Below, one piece after another: positions 35,372 to 49,123 of a stretch of 64,000 nt of DNA; the first letter of the stretch is position 1, and every line of letters starts with the position of its first letter. Below the pieces are notes generated by a model. That model saw only the letters and a program-made list of their open reading frames with translations, did not search any database and was not told the DNA's origin. The position numbers were made by a program, and so were the translations under genes. The stretch covers positions 4,631 to 68,630 of the forward strand of contig JBNKBO010000004.1 in assembly GCA_050287265.1 (NCBI GenBank). The letters are read 5' to 3'. The DNA is from Sideroxydans sp. (GTDB lineage: Bacteria; Pseudomonadota; Gammaproteobacteria; Burkholderiales; Gallionellaceae).

Positions 35372-35386
35372 AACATGCAACACCTT

Positions 35387-35492
35387 CCCCTCCCCCATGC
35401 AGGGGGAGGGTTAGGGTGGGGGTAGAAACTAGAGGGTGCGCTTAACTTGGCTTCTACCCCCATCCCAGCCTTCCCCCTGCAAGGGGGAAGGA
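35387..35492. repeat. REP-like inverted doublet between parE and parC
   Basis: CCCCTCCCCCATGCAGGGGGAGGGTTAGGGTGGGGGTAG and an inverted CTACCCCCATCCCAGCCTTCCCCCTGCAAGGGGGAAGG. Same family as 26961-27065. Confidence 0.75.
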
Positions 35493-35537: not shown

Positions 35538-37898
35538 ATGGCAACGAAAAAAAAGGCACCACCCAAAGAAGAAAAACAAACAAAACCATCCGCCCCCTCC
35601 GGCGGCAAGTCGAAATTCGCCCCGCTCGCCAAGCTCCCCGACAACGATGAAGTCCTCATCGCCAACTACGCGGAACGCGCCTATCTTGAATACGCCGTCT
35701 CCGTCGTCAAGGGCCGTGCACTGCCGGAAGTGTGCGACGGACAAAAGCCCGTGCAGCGCCGCATTCTCTACGCAATGCGCCAGATGGGACTCACGCATGG
35801 CAACAAGCATGTAAAGTCGGCGCGCGTGGTGGGCGATGTGCTGGGTAAATACCATCCGCACGGCGACTCTTCCGCGTATGAGGCGATGGTGCGGCTGGCG
35901 CAGGATTTTTCGATGCGTTATCCGCTGGTGGATGGACAGGGCAACTTCGGCAGCCGCGACGGCGACAACGCGGCAGCGATGCGCTACACCGAGGCGCGGC
36001 TCACGCCGATTGCCGATCTGCTGCTGTCCGAGCTGGACATGGGCACGGTGGATTTCATCCCCAACTACGACGGCGCATTCAATGAACCGGCAATGCTGCC
36101 CGCACGCCTGCCCATGGTGCTGCTGAATGGCGCATCGGGTATTGCCGTGGGCATGGCAACCGAAATTCCTTCGCATAACCTGAAAGAAGTTTCCAAGGCC
36201 GCCGTCGCACTCGCGAAGAACCCCGACGTCAAGGACAGCAGGCTGTTGTCTTTTATCAGCGGCCCGGACTTCCCCGGCGGCGGACAGATCATCTCTTCCG
36301 AAGCCGACATCCGCGAAGCCTACACCACCGGCCGCGGCTCGCTGAAAATGCGCGCACGCTGGACCGTCGAGCAACTCGCACGCGGCCAGTGGCAAGTGGT
36401 GATAAACGAATTCCCGCATGGCGTCTCGGCGCAGAAAGTGCTGGAGGAGATCGGCGAATTGACCAACCCCAAGGTCAAGGCAAACAAAAAATCGCTGACC
36501 GCAGAACAGACACAGAACAAGCAGCTCATTCTCTCGGTGCTGGATACGGTGGCCGACGAATCGGACAAGACCAGCAAGGTGCGCCTCGTGCTGCAGCCCA
36601 AGTCGTCACGGCAGGACCCGGACGAAATGATGGCCGTGCTGCTCACCCACACCAGCCTGCAGAACTCGGTGTCGGTCAACCTCACCATGATCGGCCTCGA
36701 CGGGCGCCCGCAACAGAAATCGCTGGCGCAGGTGCTGCGCGAATGGGTGGAGTTCCGCCTGCGCACCGTCACACGCCGCTGCCAGCATCGCCTCGACCAG
36801 GTCAACGACCGCCTGCACATCCTTGCCGGACGCATGGTGGTGTACCTGAACGTGGACGAAGTCATCAAGGTCATCCGCAATTCCGATGCGCCCAAGGAAG
36901 ACCTGATGAAGAAGTTCAAGCTGTCGGAACGCCAAGCCGAGGACATCCTGGAAATCCGCCTGCGTCAGTTGGCGCGCCTGGAAGGCATCAAGATCGAAAA
37001 AGAGATCAAGGAGCTGAAGACCGAAGCCAAGGAACTGAAACGCGTACTCGGCAGCGAAAGTGCACTGCGCGAACTGGTGGTAAGCGAGATCGAAGCCGAC
37101 ACCAAAAAGTTCGGCGACGAACGCCGCACATTGATCGAAGAAGCGCAGATCACCAAGGTGGTCGCGCAAGTGAGCGACGAACCCGTGACCGTGTATATTT
37201 CGCAACGCTTCTGGGTGCGCACGCGCCAGGGCCACGGTGTCGATGCGAGCAGCATCGCCTTCAAGGACGGCGACAGCATCGCCGCCACTTATGAAGTACG
37301 CACCACCGACAACGTCATCGTCATCTGCAGCAATGGCCGCGTGTGCAGCATCCCCGTCTCATCGTTGCCCTCAGGCCGCGGCGACGGCGCGCCGCTCGCC
37401 ACCTTTATCGAGATTGCGCCGGGCGCGAAGATCGCCCAGGCAGTCTGTGGCAACAACGAAACACCTGTGCTCATCTCCACCAGTGCAGGCTACGGCTTCC
37501 CCTGCTTCATCGGCGACATGGTGGGCCGCATCAAGGCAGGCAAACAATTCGTCAACGTAAAGGGAGAAAACATCCTGCCGCCCGCGATCCTGTCGCCGCA
37601 GGAAAATTCGATGGTCGCCGCACTGACCGCAAACAAGCGCCTGCTGGTGTTCATGCTCTCGGAACTCAAACTGCTGCAAGGCGGCGGCAAGGGCCTGATG
37701 CTGATCGATGTCAAGAAAGACGACGAATTAGTGGCCTGCAAGGTAGTGAACGAACCCGCGCTCACGCTGAGCGGCATGGCGGGCAGCAAGGCAAAGCAAC
37801 TGGTGCTGGAAGGTGAAAAACTTCAACGCCACTTCAGTGCGAGAGCGAAGACAGGAAGGGTGGTGGAGACGAAGTTGAAGGGGTTGAAGCTTGAATAA
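35538..37898 (+). CDS. parC: DNA topoisomerase IV subunit A
   Basis: [40 protein letters not shown]-terminal pinwheel repeats. Confidence 0.96.
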
Positions 37899-37927
37899 TC
37901 AATAAAATTCAGTTCCGGCACATTTTG

Positions 37928-38767
37928 TTAGCGTTTGCGCTGGATATCTGCACTGACTTTAATGGCTAGTCGCCCCTCATGTGTAAGCGCAGTGTTTCCA
38001 CCAGCAGAACTAACGAGGTTCTTGTTTTGAAGTTCCTTAAGTCCAATTTTTCCTGAAATAATATCTTCAGGAATTACTTCACGTAATAACTTACTATTGT
38101 TAACCAAATTGACGCCTTTATTTTCATATTCGCCAAGAGCGTGGAGCATTTTCAATTCAATACTGGAAAGCTCTAACGGAATATCTGGTACGATTGGACT
38201 ACCCGTTAAATGTTGCATTCCTTCACTTAGCGGAAGAATGTTTTTTGATTCCGCCAAATCCTGTTCTAGTTTATCAATTTTGGATTTAGACAAGGCCAAC
38301 TCTTCCAACAATTCCCTGTTTCGGTTTGTTAACTCGGTATTGGCGCTCGAAGACAATCTTAATTCCTGCTGCATCCGAGACAATTCTTGAATTGAAGTCT
38401 TTCTTAATTCCTTCGCCTCATCTTGAGTCAACGGCGTCTCATCTTCGATTTGTTGCTGAATCTTTTTTATCTTTATATGCTGCCAATGCCAATAGTGATA
38501 TGCCCACTTAGCTGGAAAAGGATATAACAATATAAACAATGCAGAAGTCGCTAGAGGAAAAATCAATCCATACAAGTACGGCACATAAGCTCCAGAATAA
38601 AACGCATCCCAGCGCACAAGTTTTTCATCTAACGTAAGGTTCGAGAAAAATATTGCAATAGGTCGAAAATTCCAAGCTATCCAGGAAATAATGAATGCAC
38701 CCGTCAGAGGACTTCTCGCCCTTTCGTAGAGCTGCGCTTTTATATCTTTCGTAAGGTCATTAAACAT
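37928..38767 (-). CDS. AT-rich hypothetical protein: two TM segments, a coiled coil and a possible C-terminal winged helix
   Basis: SPLTGAFIISWIAWNF TM segment, Q/E/K/L heptads, long open frame with AT-rich codons. Start set at ATG 38767. Confidence 0.7.
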   Translation of the reverse strand: MFNDLTKDIKAQLYERARSPLTGAFIISWIAWNFRPIAIFFSNLTLDEKLVRWDAFYSGAYVPYLYGLIFPLATSALFILLYPFPAKWAYHYWHWQHIKIKKIQQQIEDETPLTQDEAKELRKTSIQELSRMQQELRLSSSANTELTNRNRELLEELALSKSKIDKLEQDLAESKNILPLSEGMQHLTGSPIVPDIPLELSSIELKMLHALGEYENKGVNLVNNSKLLREVIPEDIISGKIGLKELQNKNLVSSAGGNTALTHEGRLAIKVSADIQRKR

Positions 38768-38900
38768 TTTTTCTCGCACAATCAAAGAATTTCTTTCTAC
38801 ACCGCTAATAGGCTAGATCGAACTATAGGGGGCAGCATCGATATAAATGCCGACACCAACCCCGTCAACTAATAACAAAAAGTCCAGAAACCAATCTGGT

Positions 38901-40376
38901 TCAAAGGACGCGAGTCTCCACACTCAATGAAGAATTATTGCGCAAAACATGTTGAAGAATGTTTGCCCCAAGCATATATGCATACAAGCTACTTGGCATA
39001 AATTCAAAATTTATGCCTCTATAAGTTATGTTGTCTGAAATTGTTTTTGTAGTAACGAGAACACGACTGCTAGCAGAAAAATTGTTCATACTAAACTCAA
39101 CACAATTATCCAGCTCACCATTTTTTGAAACAACACGATCAGACCATTTCACCTCTACAATCCAATTGGGTTTTTGAGTTTTATCATTTATACAAACAAT
39201 ATCTACTTCACCAGTTGCCCAGCGTGCATAATATAAACTGTTTATACTTAAGCTATGAAGCCACTGGCTATATATGGCCGTTTCAACCAAGTGCCCAATG
39301 GCAACATCATCTTCTGCAATATGTCCGAAGAGTGCAGCGCGCATTGATGGATTTGTGAGATATACCTTAAATGAAGTAGCCCTTTTAAAATGCTTAGCAT
39401 TATTATCGACTCTATTCACGCGCCTAATTAAAAAAGCAGCTTCAAGATATTCCAAGTAGCGTTTAATGGTATTTTTTGCGACCCCTGCTGACTTGGAAAG
39501 TCCTTCTAAAGTAATTTCATTCCCTGTGTTGTAGGCTAACGTAGTAAATAGTCGATTCAACTCTTGAATATCGCTAATACCATACAAGCTTGGCAAGTCG
39601 CGCAAAAGAACCTTGTCTATTATGTCGCTTTTTATGTATCGACCCGGATCTTGCTGGATTATCTTTGACATAACTGCTTCAGGGTAACCCCCAAAATTTA
39701 AATAATTACAAAATTCCTTGTTTAGTTCTTGAATATCAGTCGTCTTATATTTATTTTTTATTCCATTCTTAGTTTCAATCTCTGAAGTCTCAATTAGCTC
39801 ATCCTTCCGCTTAATAAAAAATATGTATTCTGAAAAAGTCAGTGGCGGAAGAATAAAGTCCGTGAATCGACCGGCACCAGATTCCTGACTTTTGAGTTTT
39901 AGTGCTGCTGCTGCAGAGCCAGTAACTACAAACTGATAGGATGGATAAGAGTCAACCAGTGATTTAAGGTGTTTTTCCCAATCGCGCAGATATTGCACTT
40001 CATCGAAAAAAATATAGAGGCGGTCTTCTTTTTTATGTCCGAAGCGTTTCTGAAACATCCCCAACATTTTTTCTAATGCAATATCGCTATATAGAGGCGT
40101 TTCTAATGATATATAAAAGATAGACTCACCTGACACGCCAGAATCCAAGAGTTTCTGAATCGCGTGAAAGGCCATGACAGTTTTTCCAACTCTGCGCGGT
40201 CCCATAACTACTATAGCCCGATTAACAGATATATCTTGAATCAGTGAAATCAAGTGTTTGAAATAGAATCGACGGGGCAACTCTGCAAAACGTTCTTCAA
40301 TTCCTACCCCTTCTGCCCACCAAGGATTATCAAATTCAAATCGCCCAATTATTTCGTCACTTGAGATGGTTAACAT
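38901..40376 (-). CDS. AAA_14 / DUF4143-type ATP-binding protein with a C-terminal PD-(D/E)xK-like motif
   Basis: Walker A GPRRVGKT, Walker B FFDEVQ, VTGS, GGYPE, GEVDIV...VEVKW. Confidence 0.85.
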   Translation of the reverse strand: MLTISSDEIIGRFEFDNPWWAEGVGIEERFAELPRRFYFKHLISLIQDISVNRAIVVMGPRRVGKTVMAFHAIQKLLDSGVSGESIFYISLETPLYSDIALEKMLGMFQKRFGHKKEDRLYIFFDEVQYLRDWEKHLKSLVDSYPSYQFVVTGSAAAALKLKSQESGAGRFTDFILPPLTFSEYIFFIKRKDELIETSEIETKNGIKNKYKTTDIQELNKEFCNYLNFGGYPEAVMSKIIQQDPGRYIKSDIIDKVLLRDLPSLYGISDIQELNRLFTTLAYNTGNEITLEGLSKSAGVAKNTIKRYLEYLEAAFLIRRVNRVDNNAKHFKRATSFKVYLTNPSMRAALFGHIAEDDVAIGHLVETAIYSQWLHSLSINSLYYARWATGEVDIVCINDKTQKPNWIVEVKWSDRVVSKNGELDNCVEFSMNNFSASSRVLVTTKTISDNITYRGINFEFMPSSLYAYMLGANILQHVLRNNSSLSVETRVL

Positions 40377-40411
40377 ATAACCCTTTCAAAACAATATATT
40401 GACAACTAAGA

Positions 40412-40466
40412 TCAGTTGATTGATTTTAATAATATCATAGTTTTTTAATTAAGATCAATCAACTGA
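40412..40466. promoter_or_regulatory. Long AT-rich inverted repeat upstream of the AAA ATPase gene
   Basis: TCAGTTGATTGAT / ATCAATCAACTGA perfect 13-bp arms, extendable to 19 bp with one G-T pair. Confidence 0.5.
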
Positions 40467-40562
40467 CTCTAATCAATAGGGCAGTAACACAGGCTTTAAT
40501 TCAAAGAGTTAGCTAAAGCGCGTTACATCGTTACATGCGTTACATGGGGACGGAGTCGAGGG

Positions 40563-40701
40563 TCAGATACCGTCTTGAAAGTCAAGTTTGAGACCTGAGA
40601 AACTGGCATCAAATGGTTGTCCGGATTTGATGACACCGTAAATGAGATGCGCAAGTTTGCGCATTACCGCCCCCACCACCGCCTTTGGTGCCAGCCCCGC
40701 G
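40563..40701 (-). mobile_element. 3' remnant of an IS110-family (IS621-like) element
   Basis: Translates as AGLAPKAVVGAVMRKLAHLIYGVIKSGQPFD...LDFQDGI*, typical of an IS110 transposase C-terminus. Ends in GACGGTATCT. Confidence 0.8.
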
Positions 40702-41013
40702 AGGAAATCGATGGGAAATCGATGCGGGAAATCGATGGGGTCAGACTCCATTGATCCTTGCTCCAAATACCTAACCTACTAATTCCACAAAAGAAGACGC
40801 GGTTGACAACAGAACGTTAATGAAATGGGTCAGCTTCGGATTTGTTTTCGACTTAATATTTGTTGTCAAAACAATTGCGATATTGATCTCAATTTTCACC
40901 CACAATATTTCCATCCATAATCCGTCTTCACAGTCATCTGGTACGACCTTAACTGCTTTCCCACATAATTCTGTGGTATTGCATTGGCTGTTTAACAACC
41001 ATGGGGAAAGCAC

Positions 41014-41840
41014 TTGCGAATCCATCATCTGAATTGCGCGACGCTTTGTCCGGTGAGCGCTAAACTTGTCAATGGCACGGGGGGGCTATTTTCGCCAGCG
41101 CTATTGATCTGCCATTGTCTATTGATCGAGACCAGGAACAATTTGATTCTTGTCGATACCGGCCTGGGGGTGCAGGATTTGGCGCACCCAGACTCACTGG
41201 GGTTTATCTTTCGCAACTTCATCAGACCCAAGTTGAGTATTACGGAAACTGCGGTTGAACAGGTAAAGAAACTCGGCTTTTGTCCTGATGACGTCAGGCA
41301 TATCGTTGTCACCCATCTGGATCTGGATCATGCCGGTGGGCTGCCGGATTTTCCCGGGGCGGAGATCCATGTTTCGGGCCTTGAATATAGTTCGGCGATG
41401 GACAGCAACTCATTTCGGGACAAATTCAGATATCACCCCGAGCACTGGTCACATCAGCCGAAGTGGAATACACATGCAATTTCCGGCGAAAAGTGGTTCG
41501 GGTTTGATGCAGTCCGCACGGTTGACGAGCGAGAAACGGAGGTGTTGTTAATTCCTTTGCGGGGGCACACCACCGGCCACTGCGGCGTTGCGGTCAAGTC
41601 GGCGGACAAGTGGATTCTGAACTGCGGCGATGCCTACTTTTTCCATGCCGAGATGTCCCCCCGGCCAGTTTGCACACCGGGGCTCAGCATTTTCCAAAGA
41701 TTGCTGGAGAGTGATCATGAGGCAAGAATGAATAATCAGCAGCGCCTGCGCGAACTTAAACAAAATCACGGCAACGACATACAATTATTCTTTCTCATGA
41801 TCACAGTGAATTTTGCGAATGCACAGGTGCAAGAACATAG
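41014..41840 (+). pseudogene. MBL-fold metallo-hydrolase with a probable 1-nt deletion near the 3' end
   Basis: MRIHHLNC, LVDTG, THLDLDHAGG, GHTTGH, GDA motifs. The final His (SHD) lies in another frame from 41793, ending at TAG 41838-41840; the ORF-track frame runs on to 41928. Confidence 0.7.
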
Positions 41841-41936
41841 GGACGGAGCCCCATTTATTGATATTCGCAAGGAACGCAATGAGGGATTGCCAATGGAAAC
41901 TTGCTATTGCAGTTCTTCAGATAATTAAAACGAACC

Positions 41937-42344
41937 ATGGAGGCCACCATGCTTGAATCCCGAACGATCAGTATCTCTATCAATCGCAATTGGAACGAAA
42001 TATACGAGGCAGTCTGGCGCCCGAAAGATTTTCCAAAATGGGCTTCCGGTCTCAGCAAGTCCTCGCTTTCCAGGGATGGCGATGGATGGATGGCTGAAGG
42101 TCCTGAAGGATCAATCAGGATTGTGTTTACCGATCACAACGCTTTCGGGATCATGGATCACTATGTCACGTTAGGTGATGGATCAGTGATCTATGTCCCG
42201 ATGAGGATAATCCCCAATGGCGACGGGGCCGAGGTTCTGCTCACTTTGTTTCGCCAGCCAAGCACGTCCGATGCGAAGTTCATGGCAGATGCTGAATGGA
42301 TTGAGCGCGACTTGCTCGCGCTAAAAACGCTCGTTGCGCGTTAG
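41937..42344 (+). CDS. SRPBCC / polyketide cyclase-like protein
   Basis: SRTISISINR, FPKWASGL, YVPMRIIPNGDGAEVLLTLFRQP, ERDLLALK. Confidence 0.8.
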   Translation: MEATMLESRTISISINRNWNEIYEAVWRPKDFPKWASGLSKSSLSRDGDGWMAEGPEGSIRIVFTDHNAFGIMDHYVTLGDGSVIYVPMRIIPNGDGAEVLLTLFRQPSTSDAKFMADAEWIERDLLALKTLVAR

Positions 42345-42444
42345 CCTTCAAAGCACTTAAACAACATGGGTGCAACATCGGGTCGGAGCCCAGTTTATTG
42401 AAAGAGGATTAAAAGTGCTCAGGCCCGAATGCTCTATGCACATA

Positions 42445-43023
42445 CTATTTTGAAGGCATCTGTATTGTTATCGTTTTGGGTGTGCAAAGGGTTGAATTCG
42501 TCTTCATTATCGTCATCGGCTGGACAACCAACTTATCTGTGAACTTTGGGTAACTTTCGTCCAGAAAAATTCGAACTTTTTTCTCGTCGAGGGTGTGGGT
42601 AAAACCCAATCCACTGTCATCGAATGTGTAGTTCAGATCGCCTACATAATTTACAACACCGGGCATGACGACGAATGTGGGCGAATCGGATCCCTGGCAT
42701 GGTCCATATGTCTTTCCTTCGGGAAATATCAGGGAAACGCCTAATGCCTGTGACTCGCCAGTTCGTTTCGCCTTAACAACGATGTAGCCTTTCTCTGGAT
42801 ATAAATTGATTTCCGGAACATCCAGGTGTGGTCTATTCCAAATATTGTTCTTGGTGCTTCCGCGAGTAAGATGAATTCTGTAGTTCGGTGATAGACCAAA
42901 AACCAGTATTCCCGTTTTTGCATCCAATTCAGGATTGGATCCAACCTGAATGTTCTTTGTGGTTCCGCATGCGCTGATAAAGAGGGTGACAAACAATATT
43001 GCAATTTTGGAAAGTTTAATCAT
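42445..43023 (-). CDS. Hypothetical lipoprotein
   Basis: Lipobox ISAC after a hydrophobic leader; VVNYVGDL motif. Confidence 0.75.
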   Translation of the reverse strand: MIKLSKIAILFVTLFISACGTTKNIQVGSNPELDAKTGILVFGLSPNYRIHLTRGSTKNNIWNRPHLDVPEINLYPEKGYIVVKAKRTGESQALGVSLIFPEGKTYGPCQGSDSPTFVVMPGVVNYVGDLNYTFDDSGLGFTHTLDEKKVRIFLDESYPKFTDKLVVQPMTIMKTNSTLCTPKTITIQMPSK

Positions 43024-43070
43024 GGAATTGCCCCTTAGACATCTTGGTTAGTGGAATACCTCAGAAAAAA

Positions 43071-43370
43071 TTATTTCTTATTGCCATCATTACTTTCAAT
43101 AACCTTCAACTTGGCGGATTTGATATAGAGAACTAAAAATATTGCAATCCAGATCAGAAGCAATACCAGCAATGGCGTCTTCGGGTTCCCAGCCCCGGCA
43201 ATTGCCCCGAGCATTGCTGTAATTGTTATGCCCACGCCACTGACCAACACGACACTTCTCGGTATGACTCTAGTTTTTGCGCCGCATTTCTTGCAGTATA
43301 AGTCACGCTTCATCAGTAATATCTTACCGACCATTGGTACATCACTATTGCAGATGGGACACTTGGGCAT
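43071..43370 (-). CDS. Small protein with a CxxC...CxxC zinc-finger and two TM helices
   Basis: MPKCPIC...LYCKKC, then two hydrophobic helices. GGAGG SD before ATG 43370. Confidence 0.7.
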   Translation of the reverse strand: MPKCPICNSDVPMVGKILLMKRDLYCKKCGAKTRVIPRSVVLVSGVGITITAMLGAIAGAGNPKTPLLVLLLIWIAIFLVLYIKSAKLKVIESNDGNKK

Positions 43371-43805
43371 GCGCATTCCTCCCTTGCATTGATAATTTCC
43401 AAAACTAATCAACCACACAGAAAAAGCATATAACAGCAAAGGTACTGGAGTCGATTTATTTCAGTCTTGTCTTCCTTCAGGAACAACATGGGAACGGAGC
43501 CCAAATATATTCTGGAAAAAATGGGGCTCCGTCCCTAGTGGACCTGCAGAATTAAACGGGGCAGCCCACACAGGGCGCAATAATCAGCGGGCATTACACT
43601 AAATGTGACTTTTATATAGTCGATACAACACGCTACACTTATTTTGCAACAATCCTGCAACAATCGGAGACAGACAACGGTTCCCCACGCTATTATTATG
43701 GACATGTCGAAACACTTCGATTAAATGCGAAACGCATCACAGAATGATTGAGGCGGACGCATATATTCGGTTCAGGCGAAACCAGACATACATTAAGGAG
43801 AAATC

Positions 43806-44357: not shown

Positions 44358-44454
44358 TCCGAAGCGCAATAACCGGGAGCTGACCACGGCTTCCTGAATT
44401 AAACGGTGCAGCCTACACAGGTTGCAACCAACGTTCACGTCAAGGAAATGGAAC

Positions 44455-45030: not shown

Positions 45031-45196
45031 TTTCGCCAGTTGATATCTTCTTTGATTTGCCGTCTTTCAGCTTCATCCTTATTTGCTGAGAACTGGTTGC
45101 CAGTCACTCTTCCAACATAGCAAGATTCGGGTCGAGTTCCACTCCTGTGCCCTTCATACTCCCTCTACACTTTGATAAACCTTTGCGTAGAGGATC

Positions 45197-48921: not shown

Positions 48922-49123
48922 GCCAGTTTCCTTCGGTTGGACATTTCTTTACATATTAAATCATGGTTATTCCGTGAAGCAGGTGATTTGGGAAAACGTT
49001 AAAATTGCCCGACAATTCTCAAAAGCACCGGGATCGACTTCATTCCAGCCATACCGTCCTGCAAATATAATTCGATGCTGGCCTTGGGATTTCCCATTCT
49101 TCCCGGAATATTTGATCATCAAT

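Follow-up and report, generated by a model that had tools for sequence, protein, structure and literature searches.

The region analysed here lies directly downstream of parC in a 64,000-nucleotide stretch of a Sideroxydans sp. metagenome-assembled genome (MAG; GCA_050287265.1, contig JBNKBO010000004.1, positions 4,631 to 68,630), called the window below. Short repeats lie between its accessory genes, and these are most plausibly arms of repetitive extragenic palindromic (REP) elements and of REPINs (REP doublets forming a hairpin; definition from PMC3337134), derived from units encoding a REP-associated tyrosine transposase (RAYT). An earlier sequence-only reading of the same DNA had taken the repeats for recombination sites of gene capture in a candidate cassette array. 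The parE-parC pair occupies 33.4-37.9 kb of the window, with the end of parC at 37898, and to the right of the island lies a core-looking block encoding a response regulator, a flavin reductase, an AraC regulator, a ferredoxin and GGDEF proteins, while other window genes, including those for pyruvate dehydrogenase, RNase G and pilus ATPases, are housekeeping genes. The GC content drops from 0.54-0.61 in the flanks to 0.36-0.41 at 38.0-40.5 kb and to 0.42-0.51 at 40.5-43.5 kb, so that the earlier description of an AT-rich island holds insofar as GC lies below the flanks throughout, but strong AT-richness is limited to the left half (38.0-40.5 kb). No integrase, transposase gene or other recombinase, RAYT included, is encoded in the window, in agreement with the earlier statement that the enzyme would have to be encoded elsewhere. 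A tRNA scan and an Rfam scan of the window gave no matches, and the plasmid collection searched held gene-level matches only and no island of a similar kind.

Contigs of three runs were aligned to the region. In what follows, X1 denotes the source-run contigs, X3 a run with a related strain (~95% identical to the window), and L005-L010 six loci carrying the gene for the metallo-beta-lactamase (MBL)-fold hydrolase of the island. The features of the region are the following.

37901-37927, minus strand: solo REP-A-type arm (CAAAATGTGCCGGAACTGAATTTTATT on this strand), 3 nt past the parC stop, with a BLAST match to the right arm in L006
37928-38785, minus strand: gene for a 285-aa transmembrane/coiled-coil protein, low in GC, absent from X3 and from a minor source-sample variant
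38825-38848, plus strand: REP-C-like arm ATAGGGGGCAGCATCGATATAAAT between the two low-GC genes, of the AAAGGGG[GT]CAGCATCG family (54 copies in 125 loci)
38901-40376, minus strand: AAA_14+DUF4143 ATPase gene (Pfam), low in GC, absent from X3 and from a minor source-sample variant
40541-40559, plus strand: truncated arm E (TACATGGGGACGGAGTCGA), ending exactly at the start of the IS110 remnant
40560-40699, minus strand: C-terminal remnant of an IS110-family transposase, the last ~45 codons plus the end of the insertion sequence (IS), ~140 nt, recognised by translation and tblastn
40703-40739, strand not given: three tandem GGAAATCGATGSG units of 11-13 nt between the IS110 remnant and the family F palindrome
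40733-40757, plus strand: palindromic repeat of family F (CGATGGGGTCAGACTCCATTGATCC), predicted 11-bp hairpin, distinct from the motif first reported
40823-40890, plus strand: decayed REP-C2-type element (AAATGGGTCAGCTTCGGATTTGTTTTCGAC...) 5' of the MBL gene, with copies in L008 and L010
41014-41840 as repaired (41014-41928 as read), plus strand: MBL-fold hydrolase gene (Pfam), the only gene common to all related loci
41836-41861, plus strand: REP-B arm A (CATAGGGACGGAGCCCCATTTATTGA), solo, overlapping the stop codon of the MBL gene and with 95% complementarity to arm D
41937-42344, plus strand: SRPBCC-like gene, 135 aa, absent from X3 and from all related loci
42375-42401, plus strand: REP-B arm B, the 5' half of an imperfect hairpin (42375-42432) between convergent genes
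42408-42432, plus strand: family-D-like arm ATTAAAAGTGCTCAGGCCCGAATGC, following arm B and able to pair with it imperfectly
42445-43023, minus strand: lipoprotein gene, seen among relatives in L008
43071-43439, minus strand: gene for a small CxxC membrane protein, tentatively a Zn-finger protein, seen among relatives in X3
43437-43486, plus strand: REP-A arm and loop (CAAAGGTACTGGAGTCGATTTATTTCAG...CTTCCTTCAGGAACAA), half a REPIN of the RAYT-linked family, its other arm missing
43487-43539, no strand: complete REP-B doublet (REPIN) with inverted arms C (43490-43502) and D (43523-43535), 13-bp stem and 20-nt loop
43550-43580, plus strand: family-D-like repeat AATTAAACGGGGCAGCC... (2 matches against 0.14 expected), related copies in L006, L008 and L010
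43806-44357, strand not given: response-regulator gene, bracketed by the repeat pair 43550-43580 / 44397-44427
44397-44427, plus strand: second copy of the family-D-like repeat, 88% identical over 32 nt to 43550-43580
49018-49085, plus strand: degenerate REP-A hairpin outside the island, between methyltransferase and HAMP-GGDEF genes

The motif from which the analysis started is ATGGGGACGGAGCCCnATT, which we call the REP-B arm type. Its core GGGACGGAGCCC occurs at up to 2 mismatches at 40547, 41840, 42380 and 43491 on the plus strand and at 43524 on the minus strand, in addition to two chance-like matches inside genes. The 19-mer ATGGGGACGGAGCCCCATT has 3 matches at up to 3 mismatches against 0.02 expected, and GGTACCGGAGTCGATTTATT, the query to which the arm at 43437-43486 comes within 1 mismatch, has 1 match in the window against 0.00 expected; for the bare 12-mer core with 3 mismatches allowed, the 44 matches found do not exceed the 54 expected by chance. 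The repeat is present in intergenic DNA well above chance, with all strong copies within 37.9-43.5 kb and no comparable copy elsewhere in the 64 kb except the degenerate hairpin at 49018-49085, which has 73% identity over 55 nt to an L005 hairpin (E=1e-5). In the search with an nhmmer arm profile, the solo arm after parC scored E=0.008 and the element at 43437-43486 scored E=1e-4, values that are optimistic for the copies of the window because the profile was partly built from them; the latter element also matches the L005 hairpin at 84% identity over 50 nt. Alignment of 19 arms gave the pattern AAAGG/ATGGG, about 10-13 nt, and TTT(A)TT.

The copies listed in the sequence-only reading at 40546, 41838, 42380, 43441, 43490 and 43537 (inverted) were confirmed as members of one superfamily, and its weak copy at 37899-37924 is the solo arm directly after the parC stop, whereas three of its ten copies fell away: the one at 40737 belongs to the different palindrome family F, that at about 38843-38863 is not the motif, the nearby arm at 38825-38848 being a different REP-like one, and that at 45130-45157 was detected by no profile. 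The motif is the arm of hairpin elements of 50-75 nt and not a free-standing site. Inverted doublets with a variable spacer that fold into a hairpin occur in the window and in metagenome contigs, and over 22 nt the arm at 41838-41859 shows 95% complementarity to that at 43516-43537. The pair at 43490/43537, once described as an empty head-to-head site, is an ordinary hairpin doublet with a predicted energy of -15.7 kcal/mol, which is also present in X3 and has similar doublets in L025 and L090. Cleaner full hairpins of 65-75 nt exist in the related loci, for example at L005 4790-4859 (AAAGGTACCGGAGTCGA...TCGACTCCGGTAC). Sister repeat families, represented in the window by 38825-38848, 40823-40890, 40733-40757 and the 43550/44397 pair, are common in metagenome contigs, and the family F palindrome (ATCGATGGGGTCAGACTCCATTGAT) has 18 copies in other loci. 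In a separate observation, the right arm often has its final ~10 nt (GTACCTTTGG / GTACNTTGAAGCATTAG) repeated once more 5-10 nt 3' of the hairpin (L005 4856-4895; right flanks of L021, L048 and L054), perhaps as a trace of insertion or because elements are nested.

RAYTs are HUH/Y1 single-strand DNA transposases related to IS200. The widespread arm type AAAGGTACCGGAGTCGATTT, represented in the window by 43437-43486 and by the solo arm 37901-37927, ties the repeats to this class of enzyme. A metagenome scan for AAAGGTACCGGAGTCGAWTT matched at least 120 contigs, and among the 120 contigs listed there are at least 36 hairpin doublets of 51-99 nt. Clustering of the open reading frames (ORFs) of the listed contigs revealed a family of 241-243 aa in 12 of the 120, with a Pfam Y1_Tnp match (PF01797, 52.7 bits against a cut-off of 23), with HVH and YxxxELNP motifs, and with the REP-associated tyrosine transposase model REP_Tyr_transpos as best NCBIfam match at 72 bits, just below the curated 80, against 22 bits for IS200. 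In 10-12 contigs among the matches listed, inward arms 788-807 nt apart enclose the RAYT gene; in complete cases one arm lies ~35 nt 5' of the ATG and the other ~25 nt 3' of the stop codon. The same arm type flanks a RAYT in two genome contigs, L132 (left arm only) and L133 (both arms, GTGGA variant). It is for the GGTACC-type arm that inverted copies of one repeat were found on both sides of a RAYT gene. Thus the link to IS200-like Y1/REP-associated tyrosine transposases, which had been raised in the sequence-only reading together with the advice to look for a co-occurring Y1_Tnp, was borne out in other contigs. The RAYT family is very large; a Gallionellales MAG has an annotated member with 93% identity to the L086 query, and two homologues bear the name 'REP-associated tyrosine transposase' given by JGI. 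As a further observation on location, the RAYT gene of L132 (188-3576; GCA_036171255.1) stands with a REP-A arm directly upstream of rpsO-pnp, which fits a fixed, vertically inherited chromosomal position.

The loops of the hairpins align to the RAYT unit with its ORF removed, including GGGGAA(A/T)A(T/C)ATGA just past the stop codon, and for 43437-43486 the aligned counterpart is the 3' flank of the RAYT unit. The hairpins are for this reason miniature, ORF-deleted derivatives of the RAYT unit, and therefore mobile elements in their own right. Diverged RAYT homologues (60-75% identity) carry different, mutually complementary arms: the GTGGA variant ...GGAGTGGA... in L133, AAAGGGGTCAGCATCGCATTA in L128, whose RAYT homologue is flanked by an arm similar to that at 38825-38848, and AAGGGGTCAGAGACGAATT in L134 and L135. 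Four RAYT lineages correspond to four arm variants, each self-complementary, and arm and transposase vary together.

The REP-B type was found in 9 copies in 7 of the listed contigs, with the same ATG/ATA 5' flank and 2 doublets, where about 1 copy was expected by our own estimate. A RAYT flanked by GGGACGGAGCCC-type arms was not found among the listed metagenome contigs or the four further RAYT homologues, all of which have other arms, so that REP-B is placed in the REPIN/RAYT group by analogy and would have a RAYT lineage of its own. A scan of viral contigs for the REP-B arm gave 0 matches, and a scan of the genome collection for GGGACGGAGCCCCATTTWTT gave only three isolated matches, in a Burkholderiales-labelled MAG, Omnitrophota and Pseudomonas. 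Separately, an inverted GGGGACGGAGCCC arm pair ~110 nt apart was seen at L003 5133-5244, on an Omnitrophota MAG contig (JAHIUV010000070.1); either the arm family has spread far beyond Gallionellaceae or the contig is mis-binned.

Comparison of strains and relatives (Sideroxyarcus, Gallionellaceae) showed the island to be a gene-by-gene mosaic and not one moved block, with most junctions close to REP-like arms; movement of the island as one block, which the sequence-only reading had named as an outcome that would overturn its proposal, was not seen. In X3, 37899-40893 is replaced by 1231 other bases (joint 37898->40894) and 41836-43066 by 63 bases with a different small hairpin (GGGATCAG...CTGACCC), and X3 also diverges at 43436-43514 and branches after 44363. 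X3 and a minor X1 variant part from the window at 37897/37898, and minor source-run variants branch at 37897, 40897 and 44363. The solo arm 37901-37927 forms the left edge of the first strain-variable segment, and the right end of the 40823-40890 element forms its right edge. Since X3 is without arm A, the SRPBCC gene and the lipoprotein gene but has kept the Zn-finger gene and the C/D doublet, the A-to-D segment did not move as a unit. The lipoprotein and Zn-finger genes occur apart in relatives (L008 and X3, respectively), and the lipoprotein block common to the window and L008 begins at 42422, within the second arm of 42375-42432. The MBL block starts at 40839-40900 in five relatives, and its left end in L005 is at 40981. 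In each of L005-L010 the MBL gene has different neighbours, among them toxin-antitoxin pairs, DUF488, DndB and HD proteins and an aldo-keto reductase, and the same accessory genes reappear at different positions among the related loci.

Such a mosaic raises the question of whether the REP/REPIN arms are working joints of a non-integron cassette array next to parC, with catalysis by RAYT on single-stranded hairpins or by REP-by-REP exchange. The turnover of genes around the common MBL gene would be expected of such an array, and 6 of the 7 breakpoints between the window and X3 or X1 lie within ~35 nt of a REP-like arm. Gene-plus-hairpin units sit at differing array positions, with homology stopping no more than ~10 nt from the hairpin edge (L005/L006 at a 376-aa gene; L005/L010 upstream of MBL), and modules can be minimal, as in the aldo-keto reductase block of L006 and L009, whose borders are the stop codon on one side and a point 29 nt 5' of the start codon on the other. 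Inverted arms also bracket passenger genes twice, at 41838...43537 in the window and 15696...17025 in L006. However, the breakpoints have no fixed position in the motif: homology past MBL ends at 41824, 41826, 41831 or 41835 in 5 of the 6 related loci and X3, and later in L006, each junction then being followed by a different hairpin. One gene borders different repeat families in different genomes (5' of the 376-aa gene, three repeat types in four genomes), the block common to L006 and L009 leaves the arms ~145-150 nt outside, and the L006 MBL junction has 8-9 nt of microhomology (GCGATGCT), which points to illegitimate recombination. The A-to-D segment, as described above, is not a moving unit, and inward arm pairs more than 230 nt apart among the 120 contigs listed always have a RAYT inside and never a non-RAYT passenger. 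Moreover, as most of the short spacers are taken up by REP-like sequence, it is largely to be expected that junctions lie near arms. We regard a working cassette array as unlikely, and the specific form of it in which arms from several RAYT lineages would serve as joints, with genes excised, inserted and swapped through hairpin-directed single-strand cleavage or REP-to-REP recombination, as quite doubtful. Passive accumulation of the elements, with possible aid to illegitimate recombination, is the most likely reading of the junction pattern, since junction positions vary, arms mostly fill the spacers and no passenger was found between inward arms in the 120 contigs listed. The earlier claim that the motif is a gene-capture site is accordingly unproven, with the degenerate copy outside the island as a further point on the same side.

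Two other identities of the hairpins were considered. Their size (50-75 nt), their position between small, promoter-less-looking genes, the toxin-antitoxin pairs common in related arrays, and the AAC 5' flank and GTT 3' flank of many GGTACC-type copies recall attC sites of a chromosomal integron or of an integrase-less attC cluster (CALIN), the genes being integron cassettes; but the same arms flank a Y1 transposase gene of which the hairpins are deletion derivatives, and the stems, palindromic almost throughout, have neither the unpaired spacer nor the extrahelical bases of attC. Judged from sequence and folds, the window copies are without complementary R''/R' boxes (RYYYAAC / GTTRRRY). Arms occur in both orientations with genes on both strands, neither the window nor the mapped genes of the related loci include an integrase, and folds around the copies are no better than those of shuffled sequences (z -0.2 to -1.5). 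With architecture, orientation and the absent integrase all opposed to it, the attC identity was rejected and appears scarcely credible. That the hairpins are ordinary RNA or DNA signals (terminators, mRNA-stabilising stem-loops or operators) travelling with genes, neither mobile nor recombinogenic, is very improbable, although copies stand right after stops (MBL, SRPBCC) or between convergent genes, T-rich tracts follow arms, and REPs are known as co-opted attenuators (PMC3337134). The count of terminator-like sites, 9 against 8.6 expected, shows no enrichment, and the loops, at 15-35 nt, exceed what an intrinsic terminator would have. The folding energies are unexceptional over the same range of z, no Rfam match was obtained in the window, and mobility is shown by 20-mers that recur almost unchanged in at least 120 unrelated contexts as well as around a transposase gene. 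Two further candidates were also rejected, namely A...D as transposon ends inserted in the MBL gene with TA duplication, as the repaired MBL gene ends naturally at 41840 and X3 shows A...D to be no unit, and pdif-type sites, as no dif-like sequence is present.

Considering all the above results, we propose, with a probability of about 0.75, that the motif is the REP arm of REPIN-type hairpin elements derived from a RAYT unit and accumulated in a variable region. A full element consists of two inverted arms of ~13-20 nt around a loop of 15-35 nt, with solo arms as decayed or interrupted copies. The elements would be non-autonomous; they derive by internal deletion from a unit of ~800 bp in which the RAYT gene lies between the same inverted arms, and they would presumably be copied in trans by a RAYT whose gene lies elsewhere in the genome. 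Arm families of several kinds, each paired with a RAYT lineage of its own, would have piled up in the spacers of the strain-variable region directly 3' of parC, which turns over gene by gene. Repeats would then stand at most junctions because they fill nearly every spacer, and perhaps also because short homologies and hairpins favour illegitimate recombination. One arm (E) would later have been struck by an IS110-family element, since lost apart from its 3' end. Of this picture, the anatomy of the repeats, the linkage of the GGTACC-type arms to RAYT, the origin of the hairpins by deletion, the joint variation of arms and RAYT lineages and the mosaic among strains are shown directly, while a RAYT proper to the GGGACGGAGCCC arms, a RAYT in this genome and the way in which the elements move are inferred.

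Several observations weigh against this proposal. Neither a RAYT nor another recombinase lies in the 64-kb window, and the RAYT-like contigs that the source sample does contain differ in depth (2-21x) from this genome (about 50x), so that none of them can be assigned to it. The search for a RAYT between GGGACGGAGCCC-type arms, described above, came out negative. Classical REPINs are spread genome-wide, while here a segment of 5.7 kb out of 64 kb contains every strong copy, with one degenerate copy further away at 49018-49085. The profile E-values of the window arms are optimistic owing to their own presence in the profile, and an active role in gene exchange keeps some weight because most junctions lie within ~35 nt of a REP-like arm. 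Finally, single arms are not small palindromes with a GTAG head as in classical REPs. The classical REP unit is an imperfect palindrome with a conserved 5' GTAG, while the arms here hold GGTACC/GGTAG and TCGA but no stem-loop of their own. This gap is a departure from the classical REP definition, not from the doublet-hairpin definition (PMC3337134).

Among the systems compared, REPIN-RAYT (Bertels and Rainey 2011, PMC3116915; PMC3337134; PMC5581495) is alike in its intergenic inverted doublets folding to hairpins with conserved arms and variable spacer, in its Y1/HUH transposase gene flanked by the same repeats, in the pairing of RAYT lineages with their own repeats, and in singlets that are decayed copies. 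As the hairpins are miniature derivatives of the RAYT unit, their relation to it is the REPIN/RAYT relation described in PMC3116915 and PMC3337134. The differences are that the arm is not itself a small palindrome, that the RAYT here has 241-243 aa compared with the ~500-bp genes described for Pseudomonas (PMC3337134), and that the copies in this window are crowded in one variable region with several families interleaved. With IS200/IS605 and PATE-type miniature inverted-repeat transposable elements (MITEs) there is the same fold (Pfam Y1_Tnp), hairpins that are deletion derivatives keeping only the ends, and no visible target duplication; the ends of IS200/IS605, however, are two different subterminal hairpins, unlike the one long inverted pair here, and the best NCBIfam match is the RAYT model. 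In the REP and bacterial interspersed mosaic element (BIME) system of E. coli, the 'REPtron', tnpA-REP is reportedly flanked by REPs, and E. coli REPs are known sites of rearrangement and IS insertion. The family described here is likewise a transposase gene between inverted repeats that have spread to many intergenic sites, but its sequence, arm length and loop are unrelated, it has no GTAG-headed palindromic unit, and it is known from sequence alone. Integron attC and CALIN arrays are similar in having hairpin sites between small accessory genes, toxin-antitoxin pairs included, in a strain-variable array; here there is no integrase, no R''/L'' architecture and no extrahelical base, orientation is mixed, and the arms belong to a transposase-bearing element. 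The pdif sites of XerC/D modules on Acinetobacter plasmids are 28-bp XerC-spacer-XerD sites. Such modules resemble the island in that genes in either orientation lie between short sites with the enzyme encoded elsewhere, but the elements here are hairpins of 50-75 nt.

The genes between the repeats were essentially as first listed, with the AAA ATPase, IS110 remnant and MBL hydrolase confirmed, the Zn-finger assignment tentative, and the SRPBCC call having as its sole basis a 'polyketide cyclase' gene that matches at 66% on the nucleotide level. The MBL protein has a cluster mate at 90% identity annotated in a Sideroxyarcus sp. MAG (Gallionellaceae). Its gene contains a 1-nt deletion near 41791, where X3 has an extra G after 41791; with this base restored, the stop codon is TAG at 41838-41840, inside arm A, as had been stated earlier. 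The frameshift deletion is probably real and not a MAG assembly error, because source-run contigs agree with the window. The ATPase (38901-40376) matches the PADLOC candidate defence family PDC-S01 (E=1e-63), and together with the adjoining transmembrane/coiled-coil gene it makes up the lowest-GC, strain-specific part of the island. Just 5' of the ATPase gene start, an inverted repeat at 40412-40466, perfect over 12-19 bp (TCAGTTGATTGA...TCAATCAACTGA) around a 31-nt AT-rich loop, overlaps promoter-like hexamers and may be an operator.

The IS110 remnant shares 69% identity over 31 aa with an annotated IS110-family transposase (tblastn), a similarity confined to the C-terminus, while its 67-aa ORF had no Pfam match. 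The segment 40560-40699 is repeated elsewhere in the source sample with other flanks, as seen from doubled depth and loose X1 contig ends at 40560 and 40699, and it begins exactly where arm E is truncated (40559/40560). IS110-family elements target REPs (PMC1525189), as exemplified by IS621 and its bridge RNA (PMC11208160), and the adjoining of remnant and arm E fits this documented targeting, with the difference that here the other target half and the guide RNA region are gone and only the last ~140 nt are left.

Two observations elsewhere in the window stand apart from the island. The parE-parC spacer (35383-35481) carries a nested palindromic repeat (CCCTCCCCC..GGGGGAGGGTTAGGGTGGGGGTAG...CTACCCCCATCC), a separate G-rich REP-like family that is also found at L005 986-1080, L006 2199-2278, L008 14996-15078 and L010 5277-5321 in differing contexts. 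At 27.8-30.2 kb (L001 2332-4674) there is a BufA1 / MbnB-TglH / HvfC / DoxX set, a bufferin-type operon for a ribosomally synthesised and post-translationally modified peptide (RiPP), followed by an extracytoplasmic function (ECF) sigma factor and an NrsF anti-sigma factor.

In this study, we concluded that the feature consists of REP/REPIN elements of the known REPIN/RAYT kind, with no demonstrated new system of gene capture, and the apparent new recombination system is mainly explained away. REPIN/RAYT-type miniature elements are documented here for the iron-oxidising Gallionellaceae, with at least 4 arm families tied to RAYT lineages. Since the arms mark accessory-gene hotspots and break metagenome assemblies, they are a useful aid to annotation. 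The site downstream of parC is one at which strains differ gene by gene, with toxin-antitoxin and candidate defence genes among those carried there. If REP arms were indeed joints of gene exchange, this would give RAYTs a function at the level of the host, a question that has been open since their discovery.

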